A DNA stretch of 64,000 nt from Candidatus Bathyarchaeota archaeon (GTDB lineage: Archaea; Thermoproteota; Bathyarchaeia; Bathyarchaeales; Bathycorpusculaceae). A program made the position numbers and the translations under genes. Location of the stretch: NCBI GenBank assembly GCA_963775895.1, contig CAVZKL010000017.1, forward strand, positions 1 to 64,000, in the 5' to 3' direction. The number at the start of each line of letters is the position of its first letter. The first letter of the stretch is position 1. Under the pieces are notes generated by a model. That model had not been told where the DNA came from and did no database searches. It saw nothing but the letters and a program-made list of their open reading frames with translations. This document shows, one piece after another, positions 15,466 to 33,871 of this stretch.

Positions 15466-16140
15466 TTGTCAGAAAGGTTTAGCAAAAAGTGGGAATCGAG
15501 AAGAGACGAACAACCGCTAACAAACCGCGTCAAAGATGCAGTTAGGCCACCGGGTCCTCTGAAACCAAGATTGGACTTCGCCGTTCGACGCATAGAATTG
15601 CAGGTGCAGAAGCTGGATCAGGCTACGGAGAGATTCTCCCAAAGAGACAAGACAATCTTTGCAAGAATAGTCGATGCTTACACCAAACACGATACGTCAC
15701 GAGCAAACGTCTTCGCAAACGAATTAGCCGAAATTCGCAAGATGGAAAGACTCATCATAAATGCCCGACTAGCGCTTGAACAAATAGTGTTAAGATTACG
15801 CACCGTTTCAGAGCTTGGAGACGTAGTATCCACACTCGGACCAGCAGTCAGCGTATTGAGATCGGTCAAGACGGGCCTCGTAAGCGTCTTCCCAGAGGCC
15901 GAAAGCGAACTTGGCGAAATCGGCAACATGCTCAGCGGCATAATGATCGAAGCTGGACAAGGCTCCTCAGGAATGACACTAAGTTTCGACAGCGTAAACG
16001 AAGATGCAGCCAAAATTCTCACAGAAGCTTCAACAGTTGCAGAGCAAAGAATCAAAGAGAAGTTCCCAGACCTGCCACCAGGAATCCCAGGACTACCAAC
16101 AGCCCCAGTGAGCGAAAAATCGACTACAGAGAGTTCCTAG
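15466..16140 (+). CDS. cdvB: ESCRT-III / CdvB1/2-like Snf7 protein
   Basis: Snf7 core RANVFANELAEIRK...ALEQIVLRLRT; Pro-rich FPDLPP tail; GGAGGT RBS. Confidence 0.9.
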   Translation: MSERFSKKWESRRDEQPLTNRVKDAVRPPGPLKPRLDFAVRRIELQVQKLDQATERFSQRDKTIFARIVDAYTKHDTSRANVFANELAEIRKMERLIINARLALEQIVLRLRTVSELGDVVSTLGPAVSVLRSVKTGLVSVFPEAESELGEIGNMLSGIMIEAGQGSSGMTLSFDSVNEDAAKILTEASTVAEQRIKEKFPDLPPGIPGLPTAPVSEKSTTESS

Positions 16141-16152
16141 ACTCGGAGTTGA

Positions 16153-16878
16153 ATGACTATGTCTCAAAACTCCAATCTTTTTCTTTCCGTCGGAAAACAA
16201 GTGAAAGATGAATACGGATGCCCAATAGGAAAGATCGCGTCTTTTGCAGTAACTCCAAGTGGAAAATTCGAATCTGTCTTCATTGAATTAGGCAATGGAC
16301 GATTCTCAAAACATTCTACCGAGCACCTGAAGATCGATGGTGCTGACATAACACTAGTTTCAAACATCAAGGCTCAAGCAGCTATTCTCAGTGATCAATT
16401 GCCTCTGATCTGGCGAAAGGACCAAGCTTTGAAGGAGCTTACGGACAAGAAGAAGATTTCCAGAGAACTCTACTCTGAGTTGCACGCTGGCTTCGAAGGT
16501 TTGTTGACGCAACTGAAGACAGAAGCTCAGGCTCTAATGGAGGACATAGACGACCAAACCGCAAGATGCATCGATGAAATCAAAGGTTTGAATTACGCTT
16601 TCGTCAACCTCGAAATCGAGCATGAAATCGGAAAGATCGACAACCAAAACTATGAAATCGCATTCGCGATGATTCAAGCGAACCTCAAAAGAATCAACAA
16701 CGAAAAGACCGACCTGGAACTTACAAGAGGCAAACTTTCCAACATCGTGCTAGGTGAGTCTAGTAAGATCAGAGGAGTCGAAATGCCCAGAGCGCCAAGC
16801 GCGGTTCCATCAGCTCCAGAGCTACCTGAACCACCAGTAGTCGTTTACGTGAAAGAAATCGGGAAGACCGGTATCTAA
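16153..16878 (+). CDS. cdvA: Cell division protein CdvA
   Basis: GKQVKDEYGCPIG PRC barrel, coiled coil with LEIEHEIGKI, C-terminal PPVVVYV ESCRT-III-binding strand. Confidence 0.88.
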   Translation: MTMSQNSNLFLSVGKQVKDEYGCPIGKIASFAVTPSGKFESVFIELGNGRFSKHSTEHLKIDGADITLVSNIKAQAAILSDQLPLIWRKDQALKELTDKKKISRELYSELHAGFEGLLTQLKTEAQALMEDIDDQTARCIDEIKGLNYAFVNLEIEHEIGKIDNQNYEIAFAMIQANLKRINNEKTDLELTRGKLSNIVLGESSKIRGVEMPRAPSAVPSAPELPEPPVVVYVKEIGKTGI

Positions 16879-16912
16879 GACTGAAACGAGAGAGTGACGC
16901 GCGGAGGGACCG

Positions 16913-17815
16913 TTTATCAAAGGCTTTATTCGTCCGCGCCCTCCGCCGTTTCGAGAGACCGTTAATCAATCCATTCAGACTCTAAGAGTGCAGCAAGGCA
17001 AACTCGGACTTGCAACTCATAGACTCAAAGAGCGAGACAGAGTTCTCTTCCAAACGTGTGTCAACGCTCTGAAAAACAAGAACAGAGACAAGGCCTCAAT
17101 ATGCGCGAACGAACTCTCTGAAGTGCGGAAACTGATACAATTTCTGTGCAACGTCGAACTAGCGATAGAACGCGTCGTTCTGAGGCTTGAAACAATAAAA
17201 GAGCTCAGCGAAATAGTTGTCGACCTCAAACCCGCTTTGAGATTATTGCAAGGCGTGTCCCAAGAACTCATGTCAGTACTGCCTGACGTTTCATCAGAAT
17301 TAGACCTAGTAAAAGACACGATAAGCGAAACTCTGTATTCAACGAAATTGACAGCGGATGAATCCACAATTCCCGTTGAATGCAAAACAGTCGGTGGACA
17401 AGAGATACTGAAAGAAGTCTCGTGCTATCTTGAACAGAAAATTGCTGAGAATCTGCCAGAGCCTCCGGCCACTTCAAAGGCTTCCGAAACTGAACACAGT
17501 GCAATAAGAGAAATGGTGGCGCTTGCTTCCGACATTGCAGAAGCCACGGGCAAAAAGTCCGTTGAGTCTTCTCAAAAAGATTCCTCTCAAACCCTCTTTT
17601 CTTATAAGAAAGCGGAGATCAAGGAGATCTCCCTAAAGGTCGAGAATCGAGACTTGGAGGACATCCTCCTCGATTACGTCAAGAAGAGTAATGGACAAAT
17701 CGACATGACGAGATGTTCAGTCGATTTGGAAACCTCAAATGAGGAGATAGAAAAGGCCCTACAAAACTTGGGGTCGAAAGGTAAGATAAAGATTGAATTG
17801 AATACAGGAGAATGA
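16913..17815 (+). CDS. cdvB: ESCRT-III CdvB with C-terminal winged helix (start uncertain)
   Basis: Snf7 core, LPEPP MIM2-like motif, wH tail ILLDYVKKSNGQID...GKIKIE; frame open upstream to 16898. Confidence 0.88.
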   Translation, partial: FIKGFIRPRPPPFRETVNQSIQTLRVQQGKLGLATHRLKERDRVLFQTCVNALKNKNRDKASICANELSEVRKLIQFLCNVELAIERVVLRLETIKELSEIVVDLKPALRLLQGVSQELMSVLPDVSSELDLVKDTISETLYSTKLTADESTIPVECKTVGGQEILKEVSCYLEQKIAENLPEPPATSKASETEHSAIREMVALASDIAEATGKKSVESSQKDSSQTLFSYKKAEIKEISLKVENRDLEDILLDYVKKSNGQIDMTRCSVDLETSNEEIEKALQNLGSKGKIKIELNTGE

Positions 17816-18999
17816 ACACGTTGAGTGCTTCATCAGAACTTGAAAAATCCGCAACCAATTATGCGTTGGAAGCGGTGCGCTTGGACAAGCATGGCTCTAA
17901 GGGCCTGGCGATAACCATGTATCAGAAGGCCATCGAAAATCTTCTTCAGCTTGTCCAACTTTATCCCGAATACAGTCTCAACAAGGTCTATGTGCAAAGA
18001 GCCATAGCCTATCAGGAACGAATAAAGGCGATTCAAGGTGCCGTCAGTCCCCGTGAAATGCCCCATGTCACGGAGACAAAAAATGGGGATTCCGAAGTGG
18101 AACCCAAGAACGGTGATGGTAGCAAGTCCACCTACGAAGAATTGATTCTGACAGAGAAGCCGAATGTGAAATGGGAAGAAGTTGTCGGCCTCGACCCTGC
18201 TAAAAAAGCTGTCAAGGAAGCAATAATCTATCCTGTTCAGAGGCCAGATCTGTTTCCGCTGGGCTGGCCGCGTGGCATTCTTCTCTTCGGTCCACCCGGA
18301 TGCGGAAAAACACTGTTGGCGGCAGCCGTAGCTACCGAGATTGACGCAACCTTCCTCTCCATCGACGCAGCTTCAGTCATGTCCAAGTGGCTCGGTGAGG
18401 CAGAGCAGAACGTCGCCCGATTATTTGGCAATGTCAGAAAATCTGCGCAGGAAGGAAAACCAGCGATAGTCTTCGTCGACGAACTGGATTCGCTGATGGG
18501 TAAACACTCGAACGAGGTCGGCGGCGAGATACGCGTTCGCAATCAGTTTTTGAAAGAAATGGACGGAATCGTGGACAAAGGCAAGAACCTCCACGTCTAC
18601 GTGATAGGTGCGACCAACAAACCGTGGGACTTGGATTGGGCTTTCATAAGAAGGTTTCAGAAGAGAATCCTGGTTCCTCTACCGGATCATCACACTCGAT
18701 TGATGATGTTCAAACTGTACACGGTCAATCTTCAGTTGGCCCCAGACGTTGACTTGCATGAACTCGCAAGGCTCTCCGAGGGCTTCTCAGGAAGCGACAT
18801 CAGGGACGTAAACCAGTCTGCACAATTGAAACTAATAGGCGAATTCTTTGAATCCGGAAAGGCCAGTGACAAAATGGCGAAGCCTCGTGCGTTGACGATG
18901 GAGGATTTCAGGCAGATACTAGAAGATAGGAAACCAAGCGTGTCCCTTGACATGTTAGCCCTGTACAACCGATGGTTCGACGCCTTCAAAGCTCTCTAA
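17812..18999 (+). CDS. cdvC: Vps4-like AAA ATPase CdvC
   Basis: N-terminal MIT domain, GPPGCGKT, SKWLGEAE, VDELD, ATNKPW, RRFQKR. Confidence 0.95.
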   Translation: MNTLSASSELEKSATNYALEAVRLDKHGSKGLAITMYQKAIENLLQLVQLYPEYSLNKVYVQRAIAYQERIKAIQGAVSPREMPHVTETKNGDSEVEPKNGDGSKSTYEELILTEKPNVKWEEVVGLDPAKKAVKEAIIYPVQRPDLFPLGWPRGILLFGPPGCGKTLLAAAVATEIDATFLSIDAASVMSKWLGEAEQNVARLFGNVRKSAQEGKPAIVFVDELDSLMGKHSNEVGGEIRVRNQFLKEMDGIVDKGKNLHVYVIGATNKPWDLDWAFIRRFQKRILVPLPDHHTRLMMFKLYTVNLQLAPDVDLHELARLSEGFSGSDIRDVNQSAQLKLIGEFFESGKASDKMAKPRALTMEDFRQILEDRKPSVSLDMLALYNRWFDAFKAL

Positions 19000-20229: not shown

Positions 20230-21288
20230 ATGTTTCAGTCTCATTCTTCCGCGGTGCTTGGGACGAACTTGAAGAATTGGGTTCCTGAGGACGGGGACAC
20301 CTTCGAAACCGGTGATGGCTTCATTTTCAACGTCTTTGGATACGAACATCCTGAGAATCGAGTTTTTGCCTTTCTGAAATACATACCGGCAAAGTTCAAG
20401 ACCTTGTTCAGCATCAATTATCTTGAAAACGCGTGGAAATACGAAGGGCAGCAAGTTTTTCGAGCTGAGAAGCTCTACACCGCCTATAACTATCAAAGCT
20501 TCCTTGCAACCTTCAGAACCAGTTTTCCAGATTACGTCTACTTCTGCCCTTTCAGAGGAAAAGAAGTCATAAGCTCGCCCGTAGGCTCAATACGACGGGT
20601 CTACGATCCAAAGGAATGTCTAGATCGTTTAACCAAAGTTCATGAAAGAGACAGTCTTCAAGAATCGGCACTCAGCTTGGTCAAACTTCTGTCTGATGAA
20701 TCTGATGTTGGAGTCGACGATTTCGGGCTTCACGGTTCAATCGCACTGAACATGCACACGTCAAAGTCAGACATCGACTTGGTTGTCTATGGGGCGCAGA
20801 ATTTTCGGAGGTTAGAAGCGGCGATAGACCGTCTAGTCAAGAGTCGAAGGCTCAGTTATGCGTCAAAGAATCGAATCGAAGCAGCTAGGCGATTCAAGGG
20901 AAAATACGAAGGCAGAATTTTCATGTACAACGCCGTCCGAAAACCCTATGAAATCAACTCCAAATATGGCCTGTTCAAGTACTCCCCAATTTCTCACATC
21001 CAGTTTACCTGCAGCGTAAGAGACGACTCGGAAACCATGTTTCGCCCAGCGATCTACAAAATCGAAAACTACGAACCTGAGTCTGCAGCATCCAAACTTG
21101 GCAACGAAGTAACTCCGCACGCTGTGGTTTCGATGATAGGATGCTATCGAAACGTCGCATGCAACGGCGATAGAATCCGCGTTTCAGGAACACTTGAACG
21201 TGTGGAAAACGTCGAAACAGGAGAGATCCATCATGAGGTCGCCGTTGGCACGGGAACTAGCGAGGATGAGCGGATTTGGCCGATTTGA
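20230..21288 (+). CDS. COG1665-like nucleotidyltransferase, paralog 1
   Basis: DGD..ET.DGFIFNVFGYEHP; FGLHGSIAL...SDID; C-terminal OB-like domain. Confidence 0.75.
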   Translation: MFQSHSSAVLGTNLKNWVPEDGDTFETGDGFIFNVFGYEHPENRVFAFLKYIPAKFKTLFSINYLENAWKYEGQQVFRAEKLYTAYNYQSFLATFRTSFPDYVYFCPFRGKEVISSPVGSIRRVYDPKECLDRLTKVHERDSLQESALSLVKLLSDESDVGVDDFGLHGSIALNMHTSKSDIDLVVYGAQNFRRLEAAIDRLVKSRRLSYASKNRIEAARRFKGKYEGRIFMYNAVRKPYEINSKYGLFKYSPISHIQFTCSVRDDSETMFRPAIYKIENYEPESAASKLGNEVTPHAVVSMIGCYRNVACNGDRIRVSGTLERVENVETGEIHHEVAVGTGTSEDERIWPI

Positions 21289-22350
21289 GGCTTCGTGATC
21301 GAGATGCAATAGTCACCAAAGAAGGGCTGATTTTCCGTGTATTCGGCTATTCACACCCAGCAAAATCCTTTATCTGCGACGTTGAATATGCTTCCGAACG
21401 TATTTTCACGTCGAGTAACCCGAAGGCGCCTAGAAACGGTGCGCAGAACGTCTGGTACAAATTCTACGAAGATGAGGGATGGAGATTCCTCAAAAAGACC
21501 TTCCCGCAGTACCTGCTGTTCAACCCCATGCTTCAGAGGCAGATCGTTGGTGTTGATAGGCAGGACGTTTTGGAAGTTGGAAAGCCCGAAGAAAAACTTC
21601 GAGCCATAATGTCAACAGTAGCGAAAGATGATTTGCTAAGAGCTGCCCAAGAGGTGGTTGGCACCGTAACGAAACATTCAGGATTGAAGCTTGAGAACTT
21701 CGGCGTCTTCGGTTCCTTGCTGCATGATTTCTATCATCCCAAGTATTCGGACATTGACTTGACAGTTTACGGAAAAGAGAATGCTCTCAAACTTTCAAAA
21801 GTGTTGAATGAGGTCTACCAGTCTACATCTTCGTTAACCAACGAGTTTGCAAGCGAAGAATCGGTCAGAGCCAAGGATTGGCGTTTTCGGAACTTCAGTC
21901 GTAGAAGAATACTGGCGGCATCAACGCAGAAAATTGATGTACGCGGTGTTTGACGATAAGACGAGCCGAAGGAAAATAAAGGTAGAGTTTGAACCAGTGA
22001 GGGACTGGAAAGAGATCAACAACGATTACGACCCGAAGACTAGGGTTCAACAGATGGGCTGGGTCAAAGTTCTGGCCGAAGTGACCGAAGATGAACAAGC
22101 GCTTTTCATCCCGTCGATTTATGGCGTTGAACCCAGAGAAGTCATTGAAGGACCAAGTGAAGCCGCGCAAGCCACGCGAATCCTCTCCTATGTTGAAGAG
22201 TTTCGGAAACAGGCTACGGCGGGTGAAGTAGTGTACGTAGAGGGTAATCTGGAACAAGTGATAACTTCCACCAGCAGTTTCTATCAAATTGCTTTGACCT
22301 ATTGCCCCAGGTATTATGAGCAGGCTCTGAAAGTAAAAGGTCAAGCCTAG
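21276..22350 (+). CDS. COG1665-like nucleotidyltransferase, paralog 2 (frameshift near 21900)
   Basis: RDRDAIVTKEGLIFRVFGYSHP; FGVFGSLL...SDID; EGNLE. Confidence 0.75.
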
Positions 22351-23369
22351 ATGAGTATCATGTTGTCAGCCGGGTGGTTGCCAATCAACAGTCTAAAGTG
22401 TGCGCGGTCTGTTCTCATGTCCATGACTTTTTCGACTTTTCCTTGAGCCATCACGGTCTCTCCCTTTCTGGCTTGCTCACAAAATCTTCCACGGAACGAA
22501 CAGATCTCCGTAATCGCGACATTTTTCAGCCCTTCAATAACAGTCATGTTTTCGATTGAGTATCTGCAAGGAGTGAAAATTGATTCTGAATCATTCGAGA
22601 TGGTAGCTCTGATCTTTGCGCATCCCAAGTTCTTGTATTGAAAATCACCGTATTTCTCGTCAATTTCGTTCCAGTCTTTCACGAACCGGATGAAATAGTC
22701 GGTGTCCATGAACTTTCCCTGAAATGCCTTCCTCGATTCGGTTCGAACAAAGTCCTCAAAACCCATAGCGGTGTCCTTCGAACGAAAATCGAACAAACGC
22801 TTCAAATCGCTTGAATCGTAGGGTCTGAGAGCCGAATCAAGATCATTCAGCATCTTTCTGAGTGCGATATTGACTTTTCTGCAGTTCGCTGAACCATAAA
22901 CGATCAGGTCTAGGTCAGAATTGGCTCTGTGCAAGCCGACCAGGATAGAACCAGAAATCCCGATGCTATTCCGAGGCGTACCAGCTTTTTCTCCTAGAAG
23001 TAAGGCTAGGTTCAGAGCTTTGCTTTCAAGGGCATCCATGCTCTCACCTTTTTCCAACTGCTGGAGCTTTGCGATCGGGTCGTATTTTTCCTTCAAGCAG
23101 TCAATGGGTACTTCACACATTCTTTCATCAAATACGGGATCGAGAACGAGATACTGCGGATAATTCTCCTTCAGCAATGCGTAACGATCTGAAAGGGAAT
23201 AGACCTTGCCATACGACGACCCATTTCTGATTCTGTCGCCTGTTTCTTCAGGGAAATAGCGGATGAACGCGACTACTCGGTCTGAAGGATGAACTAGGCC
23301 CTTCACGTCAAAAATCAAGCCTTCTATGGTCTCGATCAGGTCTCCTTCACGGGTCTTCAAGGACATCAC
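22347..23369 (-). CDS. COG1665-like nucleotidyltransferase, paralog 3
   Basis: REGDLIETIEGLIFDVKGLVHP; GISGSILVG...SDLD; SFRGRFCEQA. Confidence 0.78.
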   Translation of the reverse strand: MMSLKTREGDLIETIEGLIFDVKGLVHPSDRVVAFIRYFPEETGDRIRNGSSYGKVYSLSDRYALLKENYPQYLVLDPVFDERMCEVPIDCLKEKYDPIAKLQQLEKGESMDALESKALNLALLLGEKAGTPRNSIGISGSILVGLHRANSDLDLIVYGSANCRKVNIALRKMLNDLDSALRPYDSSDLKRLFDFRSKDTAMGFEDFVRTESRKAFQGKFMDTDYFIRFVKDWNEIDEKYGDFQYKNLGCAKIRATISNDSESIFTPCRYSIENMTVIEGLKNVAITEICSFRGRFCEQARKGETVMAQGKVEKVMDMRTDRAHFRLLIGNHPADNMILI

Positions 23370-23551
23370 CCGCTTTCCTCACAATGAAGATCATTCACTC
23401 AAGTCTTATTTGAGCGACTCGGTAAACCTCATTTGCATCAAACGGTAATGACGCCCGCGCGACACCTTGTGTAATTTATTTGCTACCAGTGTAAGCTTTT
23501 ACACAATCTTAATAAACTCTCAGTAAAGGCCAAGACTGATAGGGTAATAGG

Positions 23552-24487
23552 ATGAATCCAACTGATGACGCGAAGAACGTTGCAAGGTGCCTGGAACTTG
23601 CTATTCTTCTAGAAACGAGCGCACACAAACCTGGCAACGTAAGTGTGGTCACAGACTTTGACCATACGCGCTACGAGCATTTTCTTGCATCTGCCGTGGC
23701 AGCAGCTTCATCATTTGAATCAGCAGCCATGCGAGGATTAAACGCTTCTGAAAAGGGAACAAATCTCAGCGTAGGGCTTTCAATAAAAGAATGCGTCGAG
23801 GACATTGCAGCATGGCAACACGGTGGGAACACGCTACTCGGGACCATTATCTTGCTATCACCGATGGCAACGGCTGCTGGCGTGACTTTGCGAAAAAGAG
23901 ACTTCGATATCCCTTCCTTCAGGAAGAATTTGAAGCTCGTCGTCGAATCAACGACACCAGAAGACGCGGTCGACGTGTACTCTGCCATAGAAATAGCCAA
24001 TCCTGCAGGACTCGGAAAAGCACCTGACTTGGACGTCACCGATCCGACATCTGAGAAAAGGATACTTGATGAGAAAATCTCTCTTTACAAAGTATTCAAG
24101 ATAGCTGAAAAATACGATACGATATGTTCAGAGTGGACCAGTAACTATCGGGTAACCTTCGACATCGCCTACCCTTCTCTTGCTAAGCGACTGAAAAATG
24201 ATGCAGACCCGAGCAGAGCTATCGTTCAGACTTTCTTAGAAGTTCTTGCCGAAGTTCCAGACACGTTCATAGCTAGGAAGACAAGCATGAAGAAAGCTCG
24301 CGAAGTGTCGTTGGAGGCAAAAGAAATAGTGCAGCTAGGCGGAATTGAAACTTCCAAAGGCAGAGAAAGCCTGCGCGCATTTGACGGGAGACTTAGGTCG
24401 TTCAGTAACTTGCTGAATCCTGGAACGACAGCGGACCTTATGGCTGCTGCATTGGCAGTATGCGTTCTGAATGGTTACAGGCCTTGA
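23552..24487 (+). CDS. citG: CitG family triphosphoribosyl transferase (archaeal / Orf7 type)
   Basis: LETSAHKPGNV, GGNTLLG, PDTFIARK, LNPGTTAD. Confidence 0.88.
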   Translation: MNPTDDAKNVARCLELAILLETSAHKPGNVSVVTDFDHTRYEHFLASAVAAASSFESAAMRGLNASEKGTNLSVGLSIKECVEDIAAWQHGGNTLLGTIILLSPMATAAGVTLRKRDFDIPSFRKNLKLVVESTTPEDAVDVYSAIEIANPAGLGKAPDLDVTDPTSEKRILDEKISLYKVFKIAEKYDTICSEWTSNYRVTFDIAYPSLAKRLKNDADPSRAIVQTFLEVLAEVPDTFIARKTSMKKAREVSLEAKEIVQLGGIETSKGRESLRAFDGRLRSFSNLLNPGTTADLMAAALAVCVLNGYRP

Positions 24488-24608
24488 TTTACTGATACTA
24501 TGCGTACGTGTTTGAAACAGGGGTAGTTGTTCAGGTAACTTAAATAGACTCATGAATTCAACAATAACTTCAATTAGCAATCTGTTAGGATCGAACAGTG
24601 ATAATTCG

Positions 24609-25016
24609 ATGGCAAAAACCTCTAGGCTGCGCGTGACTCTGCTGACAGGGCGGACGATAGACCAAGGCGTGGGCAAAGAGCGCGGCAAATCTTCAGATGA
24701 ATACAGAAACAGTGTTTCGGTGTGTTTTATCGACCAAGACGATATGAAGAAACTGGGCATAAAGTCCAACACGAACGTATGTGTTTCCACAGAATACGGT
24801 TCAGTGGTTGTTAAGGCCTTGAAATCGCCCAGAGGGCGACATCTTGGGGTGATTTACATTCCTTACGGTCCATGGGCAAACGTGATCGTCAGTCCAGTGA
24901 CAGACGATATCGGAATGCCTTCGTTCAAAGGGATCCCTGCGGAGATAGAAGCGGCCTCGGAAAAGCCGGTGCTTGATCTTCGCGATCTTCTTTCGGAACA
25001 GTTTAGGAAGGATTGA
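24609..25016 (+). CDS. fwdD: Formylmethanofuran dehydrogenase subunit D
   Basis: LLTGRTIDQG, IPYGPWAN, GMPSFKG. Confidence 0.92.
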   Translation: MAKTSRLRVTLLTGRTIDQGVGKERGKSSDEYRNSVSVCFIDQDDMKKLGIKSNTNVCVSTEYGSVVVKALKSPRGRHLGVIYIPYGPWANVIVSPVTDDIGMPSFKGIPAEIEAASEKPVLDLRDLLSEQFRKD

Positions 25017-25017
25017 C

Positions 25018-26469
25018 ATGGTAGTCATCAAATCCGTTCCTTGTCCCGTTTGCGGATGCCTGTGCGACGACATAGAACTCACAGTTGAGGATGGAAAAAT
25101 AGTCAAAGTCAAGAACGGATGTTCCATGTCCGAATCAAAATTCCTCAACTATGCAGGACACAGAGTGAGGAGTCCTCTTGCCAGAAAAAACGGCAAAATG
25201 GTGGAAGTGCCACTCGATGAGGCCATTTCAGAGGCCGCACGGATTCTGGCGAATTCCCGATACCCTCTGCTTTACGGGTGGAGCTCCACCAGCTGTGAGG
25301 CTATTCGCGTCGGTGTTGAATTGGCCGAAGAGGTTGGAGGAGTGATCGATAACACTTCAACAGTCTGCCACGGTCCATCCGTGTTAGCCATACAAGACGT
25401 TGGAATTCCATCATGCACTCTCGGGCAGATCAGACATAGAGCAGACCTGGTGGTCTACTGGGCTAGCGACCCGTGGAGTTCGCATCCCAGACACATCGAA
25501 AGATACACCAGTCTATCCGAGGGGAAATTCGAGAAGAGCGAATGGAGAGAATACGTTTCGAAAACAAAGGCTGGAGCCGCCCGAAAAAAAGTGGAACGCG
25601 CCTTGGACATGGTTCAGGCGAAACAACAGTTCTTTGCTCCTCCGCCTTCTAGCGAGGGACCGTGTCCCGCCATTTTGAAAGGTGGCAGGAAACTCGTCGT
25701 TGTAGACGTTAGAAAGACGAGAACTGCGGAGATTGCAGACTACTTCATACAGGTGGAACCGAACAAGGATTACGAGCTTCTTCAAGCTTTGAGGGCATTG
25801 ATTCGAGATCAGGAGCTCGAGGTCGAAAAGGTTGCAGGGGTGCCCGTTGAATACTTGGAAGAAGTCGCAGAAGCAATGATCGATTGTAGTTTTGGAGTGA
25901 TTTTCTTCGGGCTGGGGTTGACGATGAGCAAGGGAAAGAATAGAAATGTGGACGTTGCGATCGCCCTGACGCGAGATTTGAACATGCGCACCAAATTTGC
26001 GATAATGCCCATGAGAGGTCACTTCAACGTGTCGGGTGCGGACACTGTTTTTACGTGGCAGACTGGTTATCCTTACGCCATCGACTTTTCGATGGGCTAT
26101 CCGAGGTACAACCCTGGAGAAACAACAGCCGTGGACGTTCTCATGCGAGGAGACACGGACGCTGCGTTGGTGATTGCTTCTGACCCTGTTTCGAACTTTC
26201 CGAGACCCGCCGCTGAACACTTGGTGAAGAACCCGCTGATCGTCATAGACCCGCACATGAACGCGACCAGTCAGATGGCTGACGTGGTTTTTCCGTCCGC
26301 ATTCGTCGGCATAGAGACGAGTGGGACCGCGTATCGTATGGATCACGTTCCGATCGCGCTCAGGAAGATCCTTGATCCGCCAGAAGGATTGATTACTGAC
26401 GAGGAGATTTTGAAGAGAATACTCGCGGAAGTCAGAAGAATAAAGAACAAAGAAAAGGGGGCATACTAG
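25018..26469 (+). CDS. fwdB: Formylmethanofuran dehydrogenase subunit B (Cys ligand)
   Basis: CPVCGCLCDD, TVCHGP, MRGHFNV, TGYP, GTAYRMD. Confidence 0.95.
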   Translation: MVVIKSVPCPVCGCLCDDIELTVEDGKIVKVKNGCSMSESKFLNYAGHRVRSPLARKNGKMVEVPLDEAISEAARILANSRYPLLYGWSSTSCEAIRVGVELAEEVGGVIDNTSTVCHGPSVLAIQDVGIPSCTLGQIRHRADLVVYWASDPWSSHPRHIERYTSLSEGKFEKSEWREYVSKTKAGAARKKVERALDMVQAKQQFFAPPPSSEGPCPAILKGGRKLVVVDVRKTRTAEIADYFIQVEPNKDYELLQALRALIRDQELEVEKVAGVPVEYLEEVAEAMIDCSFGVIFFGLGLTMSKGKNRNVDVAIALTRDLNMRTKFAIMPMRGHFNVSGADTVFTWQTGYPYAIDFSMGYPRYNPGETTAVDVLMRGDTDAALVIASDPVSNFPRPAAEHLVKNPLIVIDPHMNATSQMADVVFPSAFVGIETSGTAYRMDHVPIALRKILDPPEGLITDEEILKRILAEVRRIKNKEKGAY

Positions 26470-28162
26470 ACGGAATTGCTGATCCGTAATGGCATCGTGT
26501 GCGATCCTTTCAAGCGGGATCAACTGCGAAAAGAAGGACATTGCGGTCAAGGATGGGAAGATTGTCGAAAGAGTCAATGAAAGGAGTGCACAAGAGATCG
26601 ATGCCTCTGGAATGCTGGTCATGCCCGGCGGTGTTGACATTCACACTCACATTGCAGGGGCAGAAGTCAACACTGGTAGACTGTTGAGGCCCGAAGATCA
26701 CTTCAGGGATTTTGAACGAAAGACTTCCATCACACGATCTGGCGTCGGGCGTTCAATTCCCTCCACCTTCACGACTGGTTACCGCTATGCAAGAATGGGT
26801 TACACCACGATAATGAACCCCTCAATGCCTCCGTTAGAGGCGAAACACACTCATGAAGAACTGAACGATACGCCTATGGTTGACAAGGCCACGTACCCGC
26901 TTCTCGGTGACTGGTGGTTTGTGCTCGAGTATTTGGCACGAGGAGACATTGAAGAGTGCGCGAGACACGTGGCTTGGATAATGAATTCCACCAAAGGATA
27001 CGCCATAAAAGTCGTGAACCCAGGTGGGTTAGAAGCGTGGGGTTTCGGACACAACGTCAGAAGACTCGATGATCAGGTTCCTTACTTCTGCATCACTCCT
27101 CGAGAAATTGTTCGGGGACTGTGCAAAGTGAACAAGTTGCTTGCCCTTCCGCACACCATTCATGTTCACACGAACAGTCTTGGAAAACCAGGAAACTACG
27201 TCAACGCGTTGGAAACGATGAAATGCGTCGATGACATGGCGGTTGACAACAAACCCGTGATCCACATAACACACTGCCAATTCTCAGCTTACAAAGGAGA
27301 CGACTGGGGAACTCTCCAATCAGGTGCAGATGACATAGCAAAATACGTCAACAATCACAATCACGTCACGATGGATATGGGGCAAATCATCTTCACTGAC
27401 ACCACGACGATGACCGCTGACGGCCCGTTTCAATACGACCTGTACGGTATCACAGGAAACAAATGGGTAAATCATGACGTCGAAACCGAAACAAGCGCCG
27501 GAATCGTCCCCTTCCGTTATCGCCGCAAGAGCTACGTGCACGCAACTCAGTGGTCGATAGGCTTGGAGCTGGCCTTACTCATTGAAGATCCTTGGAAAAT
27601 ATTCTTGACCACCGATCACCCGAACGCTGGACCCTTCACCTCGTACCCGCGAATCATCGCTTGGCTCATGAGCCGAAAGGCGAGGGAAGCAACGATGAAA
27701 AGGATCAACTCACGATCGAGAAGTAGAAGTCTGCTTCCTTCGATAACTCGAGAGTTGAGCTTCTACGAGATCGCGATTATGACTAGGGCTGGACCAGCCA
27801 AAGCTTTGGGGCTTGGACAAAAAGGACATCTGGCTCCTGGGGCAGACGCGGACATAGCCATCTACGATGTTAACCCTGAGAAAATCGACCCGTCGAGGAA
27901 GTACAAGACCGTGAGAAGAGCGTTCAAGAAAGCTGCCTACACGATAAAAGGCGGAGAGATCGTCGCGAAAGCAGGAGAGGTAGTGAGGCACAAGAACGGA
28001 GCAACGATGTGGCTCGACGTACAAGTGTCCGAACCTAAGGAAATATCGGATGACATGAAGAAACGGTTCAGAGACTACTGGACCGTGGAGTACGAGAATT
28101 ATCCGGTGGGCCAAGAATATCTCAAAGTTCCACACCGAATAGCTGTCAGGGCAAGTGTGTAA
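26470..28162 (+). CDS. fwdA: Formylmethanofuran dehydrogenase subunit A (frameshift near 26510)
   Basis: ELLIRNGIVCDP, PGGVDIHTH, KVVNPGG, TTDHPN amidohydrolase motifs. Confidence 0.95.
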
Positions 28163-28990
28163 ATGATAAGACTGCGTCCGTTGAACCAGTTCAGGTATCC
28201 GATAATTGCAGAGTGCATTACTCCGAATGATCTGGAAGGGAAGAGCATCAATGAAATAGAGGAATTGAAGGTCTGGGAAGGGAACAGACAAAGAAAGCTG
28301 ACAGAACTTTTCAGAGTCGAGCAGCTCAAAGACAAGTCTCAATCAGAAAGCAATTCAACAGTGGAAATTGAGGGTGACGTCAGCAAGGTCCGAAGAATTG
28401 GATGTGGCATGAAAAACGGGGAGATCATCATCAAGGGCGACGTCGGTATGCATTTGGGTGAGGAAATGAAAGGCGGCAAGATCACGGTCTACGGCAATGT
28501 CGCCGCTTGGGCTGGTTCGATGATGAAAAACGGGGTCATCGAGATCCATGGGAACGCTGGAAGCTATTTGGCTGCGCCGTACCGCGGAAGCAGCACCGGC
28601 ATGAAAGACGGAAAAATATCGGTCTTTGGAAACGTTGGACACGAAGCAGGGGCTCACATGAAAAAAGGAACGATCAAGATTTACGGAAACTCGGGACAAT
28701 TCACTGGTTTCCGAATGCAAAACGGTACAATCTACGTTCAAGGAGACTGTGACGAGAGAGTAGGCGCATGCATGGCTGATGGCAAGATCATCGTAGGGGG
28801 AAGCCTGCAGTCAGTTCTGCCGAGTTTCTCCATTGACAGCGTCAAGCCCAAGGCAAAAATCGAGGAGAACGAGACAGCTCAAGGGCCATTCTATGTTTTT
28901 ATAGGGGATCTAACGGAACATGGAAACGGAAGACTCCACGTTTCAAAACCGAAAAATCCGCACCTAAGCTCTTACGAAAAGTTCCTTTAA
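28163..28990 (+). CDS. fwdC: Formylmethanofuran dehydrogenase subunit C
   Basis: GxxMxxG beta-helix repeats, YRG, FIGDL. Confidence 0.95.
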   Translation: MIRLRPLNQFRYPIIAECITPNDLEGKSINEIEELKVWEGNRQRKLTELFRVEQLKDKSQSESNSTVEIEGDVSKVRRIGCGMKNGEIIIKGDVGMHLGEEMKGGKITVYGNVAAWAGSMMKNGVIEIHGNAGSYLAAPYRGSSTGMKDGKISVFGNVGHEAGAHMKKGTIKIYGNSGQFTGFRMQNGTIYVQGDCDERVGACMADGKIIVGGSLQSVLPSFSIDSVKPKAKIEENETAQGPFYVFIGDLTEHGNGRLHVSKPKNPHLSSYEKFL

Positions 28991-29003: not shown

Positions 29004-29966
29004 TTGAAAAAACCCTTCAGCGTAAATCGCATGGCATGGCGTTTATTGGAGGAGTTAATCGAAAATCACGTCTTCTATGGCGTACAGACGGAAAGGGCGT
29101 CTCAAGGAACAGTCATTCTGGACGCTGGCGCAACTGCAAGGGGCGGTTTTCGGGCTGGGGAACTCGTCACTGAAATCTGTTTGGGCGGAATGGGTCAAGC
29201 GCGAGTATCTTTGAGAAAATACGATGACTTGGATTTGCCGTCGATTTTCGTGTACACGGATCACCCCGCCGTCGCAGCACTCGGTTGCCAATTTGCAGGG
29301 TGGCAATTGAGCCAAGAAGGTTATTCTGCAATAGGCTCGGGTCCGGCTAGAGCTTTGGCCTTGAAACCTAGGGAATTGTTTGAAGAAATCCAGTACTGCG
29401 ATGAAAGCGACTGTGCAGTTATGGTAATGGAAAGCGACAAGCCGCCGCCCGCAGAATTGATCGATCGCATAGCCAGGGACTGCAAGGTCAAGCCGTCGAG
29501 GTTAGCAATTATTCTGGCTCCCACGGCAAGCTTGATTGGAGCAATTCAAATATCAGGACGAATCGTAGAAACGGGGCTCCACAAGCTGAGGCGACTGGGA
29601 TTAGACCCCAAGAAGGTTCACTACGCGTGTGGATGCGCCCCTATACCGCCGCTTCATCCGAAGTTTTCAAGGGCAATGGGAAGAACCAATGATGCGATTC
29701 TGTACGGCGGAGTATCATATTACGCTGTTGAGTCAGATGACGAAGAGAAGCTGAACAAGATTGTCCAGAAGGCCCCATCAACGGCTTCCAAGGCCTATGG
29801 AAAACCTTTCTTCGAAGTCTTCAAAGAAGCCAATCACGATTTCTACAAGATAGACTCGGATCTTTTTGCACCTGCGACCGTCGTTGTCAACAATATCAAG
29901 ACCGGCAACACCTTCGCAAGCGGCGAAATCAACGTTCAAATACTAAAAAAATCCTTTGAAATATGA
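29004..29966 (+). CDS. mch: Methenyl-H4MPT cyclohydrolase
   Basis: ICLGG, QFAGW, GSGPARAL, GRTND, DFYKID..LFAP. Confidence 0.95.
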   Translation: MKKPFSVNRMAWRLLEELIENHVFYGVQTERASQGTVILDAGATARGGFRAGELVTEICLGGMGQARVSLRKYDDLDLPSIFVYTDHPAVAALGCQFAGWQLSQEGYSAIGSGPARALALKPRELFEEIQYCDESDCAVMVMESDKPPPAELIDRIARDCKVKPSRLAIILAPTASLIGAIQISGRIVETGLHKLRRLGLDPKKVHYACGCAPIPPLHPKFSRAMGRTNDAILYGGVSYYAVESDDEEKLNKIVQKAPSTASKAYGKPFFEVFKEANHDFYKIDSDLFAPATVVVNNIKTGNTFASGEINVQILKKSFEI

Positions 29967-29983: not shown

Positions 29984-30613
29984 TCATTGTGTATTCATTG
30001 ATTTCTTGTTTGCTTTGAAATAGAAGACTCTTCCGACGAATTCTCGGAACCCAGTGTTTCCAGCAAGTGCGCCCATGAGAAGACTCATGACCAATATCTC
30101 TATCCACGCTTTTGGAATGACCAGCGGAATCATGAAAGCCATCGCCGGTATCCCGACCAGCTGAACTGCGAACAGAAAGTAGAAGACTGTGTAAATGGAT
30201 TCAGGAACGTAAGCCAACAGAGTCAACGGCAGCGCCCAGGCAGAGCGTCTTGAACCGCTGACCAGTCCCGATCTCCTGTAGAGAAATCCGGCCAATAAGC
30301 CAGTTATCGCCTTTCCAATAGGTACGCCTATCACTGAAAGCAGGCCTAACGTGCCCAATACATAGCCAAAGTAATACCCTGCATAAATTCCGCTCAAGAA
30401 CCCAACGAGCGCGCCGATGTAAGGTCCGCCGAAGAAAGCCGCCACAAATGTCGCAATATGCGAAAGATCCAACGCTGCGCCTCCCTGTCCGACAGGGAGT
30501 AATGGAGCTACGTTCAAAGATATCAAAGACAGCGTGGTTCCCAGCGCACTTAGCATCGCAACGAAAGCAGTCTGTTTGGCATCCATCTTTTTCAACTCGC
30601 TTCGGCGACCCAT
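29984..30613 (-). CDS. ECF transporter S component, substrate unknown
   Basis: AFVAMLSAL, LDLSHI...AFFGGPYIGALVG; six TM helices. Confidence 0.75.
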   Translation of the reverse strand: MGRRSELKKMDAKQTAFVAMLSALGTTLSLISLNVAPLLPVGQGGAALDLSHIATFVAAFFGGPYIGALVGFLSGIYAGYYFGYVLGTLGLLSVIGVPIGKAITGLLAGFLYRRSGLVSGSRRSAWALPLTLLAYVPESIYTVFYFLFAVQLVGIPAMAFMIPLVIPKAWIEILVMSLLMGALAGNTGFREFVGRVFYFKANKKSMNTQ

Positions 30614-31985: not shown

Positions 31986-32916
31986 TTGAAGGCCGATCTT
32001 TCTCAGATAGTAAAAGAGGCAATGGAAGCTCCTCTTGCTGGCTTCAATAAGACCGTCGAGGACGCAACTCAGCTGCTTCGAGACGAAAACGCCAAAGTTG
32101 GAAACCTCGAAATCATCGGGCGGTTCGTTAGAATGGAGCCGTCGGGCGAGGCGGTGATAATAGGCGATCTGCACGGAGATCTTGAGAGTCTTGTTCACAT
32201 TCTGCAAGAGAGCAGCATTCTTCAAAGAATGGATAAATCCGATTCTGTTCATCTTGTCTTTCTAGGTGACTATGGGGATCGAGGAGACTTTTTCTTCAGA
32301 AGTAATATGCACCGTTCTGAAACTCAAGCTTCATTTTCCGGCCCAGGTCATCTTGATGAGAGGAAACCATGAAGGACCTAAAGACATTATGGCCTATCCT
32401 CATGACTTGCCATCTCAACTGAAGTATAGATTCGGCAAGGATTGGACTGCTGCGTATGACAGAATCTTTGAGCTGTTTCGATATCTCTACACCTCGGTCT
32501 TGGTGAGGAACACGTGTCTGATGGTTCACGGCGGTCCATCCGAACAAGTCCATACGGTTGAAGATCTAGCCTACGCTCATGTGAGTCATCCCAAAACCTC
32601 CATGCTCGAAGACATTCTTTGGAGCGATCCTTCAGATTCTATCAGAGGAGTTTATCCTTCCCCTAGAGGTGCTGGCAAACTCTTCGGAAAAGACGTGACG
32701 GCGAGATTTTTGAAGATCTTCAAAGTCAGGATTCTCGTGAGGGGTCACGAATCTTGTAACGATGGTTTCAAAATCGATCACGATGACAGGGTACTAACGC
32801 TGTTTTCAAGAAAGGGTCCACCCTATTTCAACGTCCATGGCGCCTACTTGGACCTCATGTTGTCTAAAGAATTCCAAAACGCGACGCATATGATTCCGTA
32901 CGTTCACGAATTTTGA
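31986..32916 (+). CDS. PPP family Ser/Thr protein phosphatase (frameshift near 32290)
   Basis: GDLHG, GDYGDRG, RGNHE, HGG, DILWSDP, SPRGAG, RGHE, TLFS. Confidence 0.9.
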
Positions 32917-32923
32917 TTGTTCA

Positions 32924-33871
32924 TTGAACCTCGGAAACTTTAAGAACGTCGCGAAACGCATTTTTCACAGACTCAAGACAACGGAGAGTGGTTTTCTGAG
33001 ATTCGGTATCGTTACTCGAAACAAAGAAGCCTACAGTTCATCTCAGCTGCAGAAAGCTTTGAAAAGGCGTGGGCTTGACTGCGTATGCTTTACGTTCCCA
33101 AAATTGATTGCCCACGTAGGATTCAAACCTATGGCCAAAGTCGCCGAACTTGACATCAGCGAGTTGAATGCGCTCATAATTCGTCCGATCGGACGAGGTT
33201 CTCTTGAAGAGCTGGTTTTCAGAATGGATGTTCTGTACGCTCTCCAGCGTGCAGGCTTGTACATCGTGAATCCGCCGCAAGCCATTGAACACTGCGTCGA
33301 CAAGTACGACATACTTACGCTCATGGAAGAGAATGGGATTCCTGTGCCACGCACTGCGACAACCGAAAGCTTGGACGAGGCACTGAAGGCTTTCAAAGAG
33401 CTTGGAAATGATGTGGTGGTTAAGCCCTTGTTCGGCTCGAGAGGAGTTGGTGCCACGAGAGTGAATGACGCCGAGGTGGCTGTAACAGTCTTTCGGGCAA
33501 TACTGTTCTATCATGGTGTCATCTACATTCAAGAGTTTGTGAATCACGGGTTCTCGGATATCCGTGCCTTCGTGATTGGCAACCGGGTTGTTGCCGCGAT
33601 GCGGCGTGTTGCTAAGGATTGGAAAACGAACTACAGCCAAGGAGCCAAAGCAAAACGTACCAAGCTTGAGAAAACCCTCGAAGATCTCGCCATCAAATCA
33701 GCAAGAGCCATAGACTGTAAGATAGCTGGAGTCGACATATTGGAAAGTCCGTCAGGGCCCGTTGTCGTCGAGGTCAACAGTCAACCTGGATGGAGAGGAT
33801 TACAATCAGTGGCAACAGTCAACATTGCAGACGAAATCATTGCCTTCGTACTATCAGAGCTGAAGAAGTGA
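32924..33871 (+). CDS. RimK-family ATP-grasp ligase, MptN-like (H4MPT/methanofuran glutamylation)
   Basis: KPLFGSRG, QEF, DIRAFV, WKTNYSQG, GVD, EVNSQPGW; C1 cluster context; start may be CTG 32996. Confidence 0.82.
   Translation: MNLGNFKNVAKRIFHRLKTTESGFLRFGIVTRNKEAYSSSQLQKALKRRGLDCVCFTFPKLIAHVGFKPMAKVAELDISELNALIIRPIGRGSLEELVFRMDVLYALQRAGLYIVNPPQAIEHCVDKYDILTLMEENGIPVPRTATTESLDEALKAFKELGNDVVVKPLFGSRGVGATRVNDAEVAVTVFRAILFYHGVIYIQEFVNHGFSDIRAFVIGNRVVAAMRRVAKDWKTNYSQGAKAKRTKLEKTLEDLAIKSARAIDCKIAGVDILESPSGPVVVEVNSQPGWRGLQSVATVNIADEIIAFVLSELKK

Follow-up and report, generated by a model that had tools for sequence, protein, structure and literature searches.

A Pol-beta nucleotidyltransferase family associated with CitG homologues and methanopterin-type genes in archaea

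We analysed a 64,000-nucleotide stretch of DNA (the window) from a Bathyarchaeia genome, that of a soil or sediment archaeon. Three paralogous Pol-beta nucleotidyltransferase (NTase) genes lie beside a CitG-family gene at positions 20230-24487, and the features of this region and of the DNA downstream are as follows.

20230-21288, + strand: NT1, Pol-beta NTase of 352 aa with an N-domain and an OB tail
21276-22350, + strand: NT2, split into ORFs 21276-21953 and 21847-22350 in different frames
22347-23369, - strand: NT3, A-clade NTase of 340 aa
23370-23551, no strand: spacer of 182 bp between the divergent NT3 and CitG-family genes
23552-24487, + strand: CitG-family protein of 311 aa (PF01874, E 2e-69)
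24552-25016, + strand: fwdD, formylmethanofuran dehydrogenase subunit
24973-26469, + strand: fwdB, formylmethanofuran dehydrogenase subunit
26489-28162, + strand: fwdA, formylmethanofuran dehydrogenase subunit
28163-28990, + strand: fwdC, formylmethanofuran dehydrogenase subunit
29004-29966, + strand: mch, methenyl-H4MPT cyclohydrolase (PF02289, E 9.8e-123)
29984-30613, - strand: ECF-transporter S component (PF12822, 29.7 bits, just under the cut-off of 30.7)
32266-32916, + strand: calcineurin-like phosphoesterase (PF00149, E 8e-16), adjoining the MptN-like ligase
32924-33871, + strand: RimK-family ATP-grasp ligase, MptN-like (best match MptN, below that family's cut-off)

The CitG-like gene heads a same-strand series of fwdD, fwdB, fwdA, fwdC and mch, in which the fwd subunits were named from their Pfam matches (Molydop_binding, Molybdopterin, Amidohydro_3 and GXGXG) and from gene order. 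NT3 is transcribed divergently from this series, and the intervening spacer is presumed to hold the promoter region shared by NT3 and the CitG-like gene. The ECF S component might import a cofactor or a precursor. The MptN-like ligase scores 273 bits against NF040720 (cut-off 350) and 211 bits against TIGR00768 (cut-off 143). No citrate-lyase or ACP families were detected among the window ORFs that were scanned. The organization proposed in the first-pass annotation was thus borne out: ORFs, alignment and an AlphaFold model all support three paralogous NTases with an N-domain, a GS...SDxD motif and an OB-like tail, one of them is divergent from a CitG gene heading fwdDBAC-mch, an MptN-like ligase lies nearby, albeit under the MptN cut-off, and citrate lyase and ACP genes were not seen in the scanned ORFs.

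The CitG-like gene is single-copy in the host genome. Its product contains a full-length domain, covering positions 1-283 of the 284 in the PF01874 profile, and its best NCBIfam score of 55.9 bits, against a cut-off of 282.35, does not reach the CitG/MdcB equivalog level. The citrate lyase carrier gene citD (TIGR01608) was found in none of 41 related genomes, including the host's own, whilst the E. coli control was positive. We exclude a canonical CitG role because citD was not found in these relatives and the CitG scores fall far under the equivalog cut-offs.

The break in NT2 is a +1 frameshift of one base near 21902-21905. It is private to assembly GCA_963775895.1. Contigs from three public runs in two studies (X1, X2 and X4) each contain one base fewer at this site. 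Without the extra base, NT2 is a single 357-aa ORF that covers positions 3-341 of the family profile and is thus full length, and NT2 is intact, at around 360 aa, in relatives.

The three genes belong to an archaeal NTase family without prior characterization, consisting of an N-domain, a Pol-beta core and an OB fold. NT1 shares 23-29% identity with its paralogues and contains the GS and SDxD motifs. Scores against PF01909 (cut-off 21) were 25.7 bits for NT1, 21.2 for the N-terminal part of NT2 and 17.7 for NT3. In an alignment that represents all four paralogue types with 23 sequences, G140-S141 and S151-D152-x-D154 (NT3 numbering) are invariant in all 23, and the GS and DxD catalytic motifs, which fit the patterns hG[GS] and [DE]x[DE], are kept in both clade alignments. 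PF01909 was matched at E<=5 by 19 of the 23 members; at this threshold no member hit CitX, MdcG or a further specific Pfam family, and no sequence match for the family was found in the PDB. In the AlphaFold model of NT3 (pLDDT 94.2), a beta-rich N-domain precedes the NTase core (residues 110-234), and an OB fold forms the C-terminal part (residues 245-340). The core adopts the palm-like alpha/beta fold of the Pol-beta superfamily and aligns to Pol X, TUT7, Pol beta, GLD-2 and Trf4 with middling Z scores of 6.8-8.1 over 86-91 residues. The OB fold is closest to SSB, RPA, MCM and the anticodon-binding domains of aminoacyl-tRNA synthetases, again at middling Z scores (7-9, with the OB fold at 8-8.9). 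The gene neighbours are pterin and C1 genes, none of them RNA-related. In B-type members the OB domain is acidic, with a median pI of 4.9.

A phylogenetic tree revealed an old A/B pair and two divergent offshoots. Clades A and B usually occur as a pair, and the family is mostly present as at least two paralogues. NT3 is A-type, the kind usually found directly beside CitG. NT2 branches from the A clade as a divergent offshoot, and NT1, likewise divergent, represents an offshoot confined to Bathyarchaeia and grouping with clade B. Nothing was seen that points to the new, extended C1 carrier built by three paralogues that had been suggested earlier. One natural fusion joins HPPK (PF01288, E 3e-40) to an NTase of the family (P0192, a single case).

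We examined the linkage of the family to CitG across genomes. Among the 41 relatives, 30 of 34 CitG-positive genomes have an NTase match on the same contig within 5 kb of CitG, and the three-gene NTase block is conserved together with CitG. In 80 CitG-centred loci, an NTase was present in 50 and lay within two ORFs of CitG in 43. Adjacent same-strand CitG-NTase pairs also occur outside Bathyarchaeia, in families f27, f33 and f36, in Methanomethylicia and in Culexarchaeum, and the CitG, NTase and DUF1464 genes of one Metallosphaera genome overlap in a single operon. In 151 Thermoproteota genomes, the NTase and CitG were found together in 62, the NTase only in 9, CitG only in 3 and neither in 77. 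The corresponding numbers for 101 Asgard genomes were 62, 5, 17 and 17, such that the NTase is missing from 17 of 79 CitG-positive Asgard genomes.

The family also follows the methanopterin genes. An NTase was present in 87 of 91 MptG-positive genomes (44/48 Thermoproteota, 43/43 Asgard), and MptG or Mch was present in 68 of 71 NTase-positive versus 6 of 80 NTase-negative Thermoproteota; since genomes of the same lineage are not independent, such co-occurrence counts overstate the statistics. The NTase occurs without MptG in 27 Thermoproteota and 24 Asgard genomes. Conversely, four of the 48 MptG-positive Thermoproteota (G054, G061, G132 and G178, each ~99% complete) had no NTase at E<=1e-5, and the family is therefore either not universally required or too diverged in these genomes. 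In Bathyarchaeia, Methanomethylicia and Asgard archaea, NTase genes lie inside clusters of MptA, MptD, MptE, MptG and MptH with DUF447. One such locus (L032) reads NTase, NTase, CitG, DUF447, MptE, flavoprotein-Fer4, DUF1464, PTPS, MptG and MptH-like, and another (L023) reads MptE, MptA, DUF447, CitG, NTase and NTase; L102 contains MptD and a pterin methylase in addition, and L090 is also a methanopterin-cluster setting. In Asgard archaea, MptG is followed by the NTase pair and then by CitG within ~14 kb. The window itself has only fwd, mch and the MptN-like gene nearby, and no Mpt biosynthesis cluster around its NTases. Co-occurrence, adjacency, placement in biosynthetic clusters in several phyla and the HPPK fusion together connect the family with the CitG homologue and with genes for methanopterin-type cofactors, as the first-pass annotation had claimed. 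The linkage of NTase to citG is conserved in relatives and occurs beyond Bathyarchaeia, and the profiling that the annotation had proposed (mch, mptG and citG) gave the predicted result within Thermoproteota and Asgard archaea. That the family belongs to the methanopterin pathway is thus well supported, and we hold this with high confidence.

The closest known systems are CitG with CitX (citrate lyase) and MdcB with MdcG (malonate decarboxylase), which synthesize protein prosthetic groups, CitX and MdcG acting on an acyl carrier protein. As in those systems, a CitG-family gene is paired, often with overlap, with a gene for a Pol-beta-fold NTase, and by analogy the chemistry may also be shared, with a triphosphoribosyl intermediate made from ATP, attack by a hydroxyl and release of PPi. 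The archaeal NTases differ from CitX and MdcG in having no sequence similarity to them, in their size of ~340 aa, which includes an additional N-domain and an OB fold, and in usually occurring as at least two paralogues; no ACP or lyase genes were found. Their pterin cofactor context also differs, which would make the acceptor a small molecule. Methylotrophs, which make dephospho-H4MPT, encode the CitG homologue Orf7. As in the window, this CitG-like gene adjoins mch and further H4MPT-linked genes, and the DUF447 and ATP-grasp neighbours of the H4MPT islands recur in the archaeal loci. One such island is ordered mch-orf5-orf7-fae-orf17 (PMC3615186). The MptN-like gene 8.4 kb downstream recalls side-chain tailoring of the same cofactor by MptN (tetrahydromethanopterin:alpha-L-glutamate ligase), an ATP-grasp enzyme that, unlike the NTases, makes an amide bond. 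The copy in the window falls under the MptN cut-off.

From the observed fold, catalytic motifs and genomic linkage, we infer substrates, an order of steps and roles for the paralogues by analogy with CitG and CitX. The CitG-like enzyme would transfer a 5-triphospho-alpha-ribosyl group from ATP onto the hydroxyl at the end of the aminophenyl-ribitol part. With the help of an NTase, the hydroxyl of 2-hydroxyglutarate, or of a different alcohol specific to the lineage, would then attack the alpha-phosphate; PPi would leave and the ribose-5-phosphodiester would stay, much as CitX and MdcG use the products of CitG and MdcB. We consider the chances about even that the CitG-like protein and the NTases make the methanopterin-type side chain in this manner. 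Several observations count against it: none of the 23 members matches CitX or MdcG in sequence, the OB fold is nearest to nucleic-acid binders and the core to NTases that polymerise RNA and DNA, the NTase is missing from the four MptG-positive Thermoproteota and 17 CitG-positive Asgard genomes mentioned above, and the host lacks the early pathway. A single phosphodiester also creates no obvious need for a conserved A/B pair.

A less probable alternative keeps the pathway and changes the chemistry. Side chains of F420 and of cobamides are joined via a phosphodiester by CofC/CofD and by CobU/CobY-CobS, in which a nucleotidyltransferase supplies the activated phosphate, and the archaeal NTases could likewise activate a phosphate by nucleotidylation, or catalyse some other step that has no assigned enzyme. 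One possibility is that a ribose-5-phosphate intermediate is adenylylated and then transferred to hydroxyglutarate with release of AMP, and the A and B paralogues might each perform one half-reaction. The genomic ties to methanopterin genes speak for this reading too, the conserved A/B pair hints at a heteromer or at two reactions, the HPPK fusion connects the family with the pterin end of the pathway, and the 5 Asgard and 9 Thermoproteota genomes with an NTase and no CitG fit as well. Cell extracts studied by R. H. White reportedly used PRPP, not ATP, as the ribosyl donor and had a separate ATP-dependent hydroxyglutarate step, so that nucleotidyl activation fits these requirements better than the triphosphate route does. 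However, the simplest explanation of the tight, often overlapping CitG-NTase pairs is consecutive steps sharing one intermediate, as in CitG-CitX, and no separate transferase resembling CofD or CobS recurred as a partner. CofC/CofD and CobU/CobY-CobS are other protein families, with no CitG partner and with activation by GMP transfer rather than by a ribosyl triphosphate.

It is improbable that the CitG-like enzyme works with the NTases to load a protein carrier of C1 metabolism with a phosphoribosyl-linked prosthetic group. The combination of CitG and an NTase is known solely from the making of protein prosthetic groups, a protein could be what the additional N-domain and OB domain recognize, and the window genes adjoin those for the Fwd and Mch enzymes; against this, citD was found in none of the 41 relatives, the annotated loci show no recurrent gene for a small carrier next to the pair, and the recurrent neighbours are small-molecule pterin enzymes. 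Modification or extension of RNA or DNA (tRNA editing, tailing or repair), with only a coincidental proximity to CitG and C1 genes, is suggested by the nearest structural matches of the OB fold (Z 7-9) and of the core (Pol X, TUT7, GLD-2 and Trf4, Z 7-8) and is very improbable, given that the distribution tracks MptG and Mch rather than universal RNA processes, that 80 of 151 Thermoproteota genomes yielded no family member, that it is embedded in pterin operons and fused to HPPK and, as a weak point, that the B-type OB domain is acidic.

To our knowledge, no enzymes have been assigned to the late methanopterin steps, the addition of alpha-ribose-5-phosphate and of hydroxyglutarate, since they were outlined with cell extracts in the 1990s, and our literature searches found no paper linking CitG-like proteins or any nucleotidyltransferase to them. 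The NTase family offers concrete gene candidates for these side-chain steps. Sulfolobus acidocaldarius, which is genetically tractable, carries one orthologue of the family, and the question of the methanopterin tail is therefore directly testable. Because methanogenesis, anaerobic methane oxidation and the archaeal Wood-Ljungdahl pathway are built on methanopterin-type carriers, the enzymes are also potential inhibitor targets.

In the host genome and its genus, MptG, MptH, MptA, MptE, MptD and DUF447 were not found, and CitG, the NTases, the pterin methylase, Fwd, Ftr and Mch are kept. The CitG-NTase module in this host thus appears to work without the early pathway. The lack of the early genes with retention of the tail module and of Fwd, Ftr and Mch suggests salvage or re-tailing. 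It is possible, though we regard it as doubtful, that the module serves this purpose in the host genus and that de novo synthesis of the pterin-arylamine core has been lost. The host would import a fragment of methanopterin, or a methanopterin-type cofactor of foreign origin, perhaps via the ECF S component beside mch, and CitG, the NTases, the phosphoesterase and the MptN-like ligase would rebuild or exchange the ribose-phosphate-acid tail, with the divergent NT1 and NT2 broadening the range of heads or tails accepted. If true, this would be cofactor remodelling comparable to that of cobamides, and H4MPT would be a public good that is traded in anoxic sediments. Many Mch-positive Bathyarchaeia are without the first committed enzyme and have kept the tail module, a pattern suggesting that cofactor auxotrophy and exchange may be widespread. 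A broken MptA remnant is present in one near-complete relative. An ECF S-like gene also lies beside CitG and the NTase in a further locus (L022).

The reading at issue is that CitG and the nucleotidyltransferases next to it build the methanopterin side chain, or tail. The first-pass annotation had described three paralogous Pol-beta nucleotidyltransferases (NT1, NT2 and NT3; their family is called NTase here) beside a CitG-family gene at the fwd-mch cluster, together with an MptN-like ligase. We found this arrangement at 20230-24487, with fwdDBAC-mch lying 3' of CitG, and the ligase gene a short way further on. The genes of the region are as follows.

Upstream genes: winged-helix protein, MobB, CdvA, ESCRT-III-like protein (Snf7), Vps4-like protein (CdvC-type)
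20230-21288, plus strand: NT1, 352 aa
21276-22350, plus strand: NT2, two ORFs in differing frames in the window assembly
22347-23369, minus strand: NT3, 340 aa
23552-24487, plus strand: CitG-family gene (PF01874, E 2e-69, whole profile covered)
3' of CitG, ending at 29966, plus strand as CitG: fwdD, fwdB, fwdA, fwdC, mch
29984-30613, minus strand: ECF S component, downstream of mch
32266-32916: calcineurin-like phosphoesterase, downstream of mch
32924-33871: RimK-family ligase, top match MptN, under the MptN family cut-off
Downstream part of the same region: FdhD

The stretch 15466-18999 is a cell-division cluster (Snf7-like protein, CdvA, Snf7-like protein and a Vps4-type AAA ATPase with a MIT domain), which fits a TACK archaeon. 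At 4338-9022 lie genes for a pair of large HdrA-like proteins (FAD and Fe-S), and the second carries a fused MvhD/FlpD domain.

The distribution of the NTase family tracks mch, mptG and citG in Thermoproteota and Asgard archaea, as had been anticipated. We called MptG with TIGR00144 at E<=1e-15 and NTase absence at E<=1e-5. MptG occurs in 48 genomes of an even sample of 151 Thermoproteota, and 44 of these encode an NTase and 45 CitG. Among 101 Asgard genomes, 43 encode MptG; all 43 have an NTase and 39 have CitG. Mch was detected in 38 of the 151 Thermoproteota, 36 of them with an NTase. Overall, MptG or Mch is present in 68/71 NTase-positive versus 6/80 NTase-negative Thermoproteota. In four MptG-positive Thermoproteota, each ~99% complete, no NTase was detected (E<=1e-5), which counts against the reading. 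The following gene orders were observed at loci in other genomes.

L032 (Bathyarchaeia): NTase, NTase, CitG, DUF447, MptE-like, flavoprotein-Fer4, DUF1464, PTPS, MptG, MptH-like
L023: MptE, MptA, DUF447, CitG, NTase, NTase
L102 (Methanomethylicia): flavoprotein-Fer4, MptD, MptE, MptA, DUF447, CitG, NTase, Mrr-like, NTase, radical-SAM pterin methylase, DUF1152
L035: Ftr and Mtd, flanked by NTases
L024: FwdA, FwdC, Mch, NTase
Asgard genomes G187, G189, G197, G208, G229, G253, G259 and G271: MptG, NTase pair and CitG in ~14 kb
L090 (Freyarchaeota): NTase pair, then MptA and an MptH-like gene

We consider it very likely that the NTase family belongs to the methanopterin pathway. A search of openly accessible literature returned no paper on a function for the family or on a link between CitG and methanopterin, and nothing relevant on DUF447, DUF1464, COG1767 or COG2457. 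CitG is not mentioned in the available extracts of PMC8305020 and PMC3087415.

The linkage to citG, which the first-pass annotation had also put forward, is conserved. Among 41 relatives, 37 encode an NTase and 34 encode CitG, and in 30 of these 34 an NTase lies <=5 kb from CitG on the same contig; the four genomes that lack an NTase likewise lack CitG. Counted over genomes that are related and are not independent samples, both genes occur together in 62 of the 151 Thermoproteota (NTase only, 9; CitG only, 3; neither, 77) and in 62 of the 101 Asgard genomes (NTase only, 5; CitG only, 17; neither, 17). The 14 genomes with an NTase and no CitG count against the reading, as do the 17 CitG-positive Asgard genomes without an NTase, none of which encodes MptG. 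A narrow CitG alignment retrieved 80 CitG-centred loci in named public genomes, with ORFs called by an in-house script; an NTase was present in 50 of these loci and lay <=2 ORFs from CitG in 43. Direct same-strand CitG-NTase pairs are found well beyond Bathyarchaeia. A Metallosphaera genome contains overlapping genes for CitG, a 297-aa NTase and DUF1464, and Sulfolobus acidocaldarius has an orthologue of this NTase. citD was found in 0/41 relatives, and the window CitG scores far under the CitG and MdcB equivalog cut-offs. Therefore, the classical citrate-lyase role of this gene is excluded.

Two further proteins were observed next to CitG. In clusters of Freyarchaeota and Jordarchaeia, a ~380-aa protein is encoded between CitG and the two NTases (L090:10539-11660, L072:10524-11675, L076:3678-4829, L084:10464-11612) and is possibly another candidate for a missing pathway enzyme; the L090 copy contains a TiaS TCKD-like domain. 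One Hadarchaeota genome and Scotarchaeum encode an ATP-grasp_3 protein directly 3' of CitG (L085:3207-4394, L086:8980-10152). This order resembles the orf5-orf7 pair of the methylotroph H4MPT islands, in which we take Orf7 to be CitG-like. The methylotroph island mch-orf5-orf7-fae-orf17 is described as H4MPT-linked in an extract of PMC3615186.

We calculated a FastTree phylogeny of 116 rows, obtained from 151 profile matches (133 distinct sequences) after removal of 17 near-copies (>=75% identity); it carries local support values only and is midpoint-rooted. The tree resolves two old clades. Clade A contains NT3, nearly all CitG-adjacent copies and the Asgard, Methanomethylicia and Hadarchaeota members, with the divergent NT2 type as its sister group. 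Clade B comprises a fourth paralogue type from other Bathyarchaeia, the one Sulfolobales copy, and the second members of the pairs found in Asgard, Methanomethylicia and other Thermoproteota. The divergent NT1 type, found only in Bathyarchaeia, is sister to clade B. These two clades point to an A/B pair as the basic unit of the family. In the window's own genome (G000), clade A is represented by NT3 and by its offshoot type NT2, and clade B by its offshoot type NT1; NT1 shares 23-29% identity with the other two. Match counts in Thermoproteota, though not in Asgard archaea, hinted at a higher NTase copy number in genomes without MptG; matches are not gene counts, and the idea was dropped.

The single-sequence structure prediction of NT3 (pLDDT 31) was unusable, and we used a model predicted from a 23-row alignment (pLDDT 94.2, pTM 0.90). 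It comprises a beta-rich N-domain, a Pol-beta core (residues 110-234) that aligns to Pol X, TUT7, Pol beta and GLD-2 with Z 6.8-8.1, and an OB fold (residues 245-340) that aligns to SSB, MCM and RPA with Z up to 8.9. The OB fold filled the structural match lists, and no full-length match was obtained in the PDB by sequence or by structure (Foldseek, E<=0.001). Pfam places the NTases in generic nucleotidyltransferase families only, and NCBIfam gave no match. The residues G140-S141 and D152-x-D154 (NT3 numbering) are present in 23/23 sequences of all paralogue types, so every copy looks catalytically competent as judged from its motifs. Within the OB domain, C268 and C297 are invariant in 23/23 A-type sequences of a separate alignment and are not conserved in B-type sequences; they may form a metal or redox site. 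A complex prediction for NT3 (A-type) with NT1 (B-derived) returned scores of 0.00 and 0.00, uninformative on binding, and domain charge was not decisive.

The chemistry of the CitG-CitX and MdcB-MdcG pairs is established and serves as the model for the proposed mechanism. By analogy, the CitG-like enzyme would move the 5-triphospho-alpha-ribosyl group of ATP to the ribitol hydroxyl, and the NTase would then join the alpha-phosphate to 2-hydroxyglutarate with release of PPi. We are evenly divided on whether triphosphoribosyl transfer and such coupling would be the actual chemistry. Searches at E up to 5 linked no member of the NTase family to CitX or MdcG, and this lack of similarity counts against the reading. 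Under the main rival, the pathway is the same and the NTases would activate a phosphate by nucleotidylating it, with A and B possibly performing one half-reaction each. This agrees with the conserved A/B pair, and also with studies of extracts in which the ribosyl step reportedly required PRPP and the hydroxyglutarate step ATP. It is less likely that CitG and the NTases attach a prosthetic group to a protein, or that the NTases act on RNA, since the gene contexts speak against both, although the OB fold and polymerase-like core keep them alive. In archaea, chemical modification gives rise to at least six C1 carriers (PMC9931769), and Sulfolobus uses sulfopterin (PMC3697235), consistent with lineage-specific tails. 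At 53576-54514, 30 kb from the NTase region, the window encodes a D-2-hydroxyacid dehydrogenase beside aconitase X genes, which is in principle a conceivable source of a 2-hydroxy acid.

G000 (1.77 Mb, completeness 88.8%) is a Bathyarchaeia genome, with close homologues that carry the names Bathyarchaeia or Bathyarchaeota. It encodes a pterin methylase (G000:C5:19629-21092; 47% identity, full length), two Ftr copies, Fwd, Mch, CitG and the NTases. Pfam and NCBIfam family searches of this genome found no MptG, MptH-like protein (PF14251), Pterin_bind, MptA, MptE, DUF447 or DUF1464. A tblastn search with queries from Bathyarchaeia, Methanomethylicia, Asgard archaea and Hadarchaeota found no MptG, MptH-like protein, MptA, MptE, DUF447, DUF1464, MptD, PTPS, DUF1152 or Mtd. 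A single missing contig carrying a clustered pathway could explain these absences at this level of completeness. Against this explanation, MptG was detected in 0/11 genomes of the genus and the MptH-like gene in 0/5 near-complete relatives (one a single-contig genome 97% complete), and MptA was detected in only one of these five, as a stop-interrupted copy. Because of this pattern, we argue that the early-pathway loss in the genus is real. An MptA remnant with an internal TAG stop lies at G001:C1:901905-902644; apart from it, searches of the relatives G001, G002, G008, G009 and G018 also gave no MptG, MptH-like protein, MptA, MptE, MptD or DUF447. Of the 27 sampled Thermoproteota that have an NTase and no MptG, 24 encode Mch. 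These organisms use methanopterin-dependent enzymes and keep CitG-NTase without the first committed enzyme; they may salvage the cofactor, import a precursor and re-tail it, or have an unrecognised early route. A second Mch-like gene in G000 (G000:C27:62972-63906) is broken in two and contains an in-frame TAG; it is possibly a pseudogene or an assembly error.

The NT2 frame break in the window was compared with contigs from public sequencing runs. Those of three runs (two studies) have one base fewer at 21902-21905, and a fourth run gave no coverage. Scripted removal of the extra base yields a single 357-aa ORF that matches family profile positions 3-341 with E ~1e-109, and the counterparts in relatives are intact at ~360 aa. 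The frameshift (window 21895-21910) therefore reflects either an error of assembly or a lesion private to the strain. In another genome, G030 (L018:2279-3345), the NT2 reading frame is likewise broken in two, at a different place (near residues 133-159); the gene may be undergoing decay in some lineages, or its sequence may tend to be misassembled.

No classical methanogen names were found among the 24 and 48 proteins matched by the Metallosphaera and Hadarchaeota NTase queries, respectively, and ESM Atlas matches carried TACK-type labels only. A contig labelled 'Acidiferrales bacterium' (L108) encodes three NTases and CitG; it is probably a mis-binned archaeal contig, because its NT1 is 66% identical to that of the window and is nested among Bathyarchaeia in the tree. 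In G162, a single 769-aa ORF (L124:1850-4159) runs from an NTase of the family into an M20 peptidase domain, which may be a genuine fusion or an artefact of assembly. The 505-aa protein P0192 consists of an N-terminal, bacterial-type HPPK domain (PF01288, E 3e-40) fused to an NTase.
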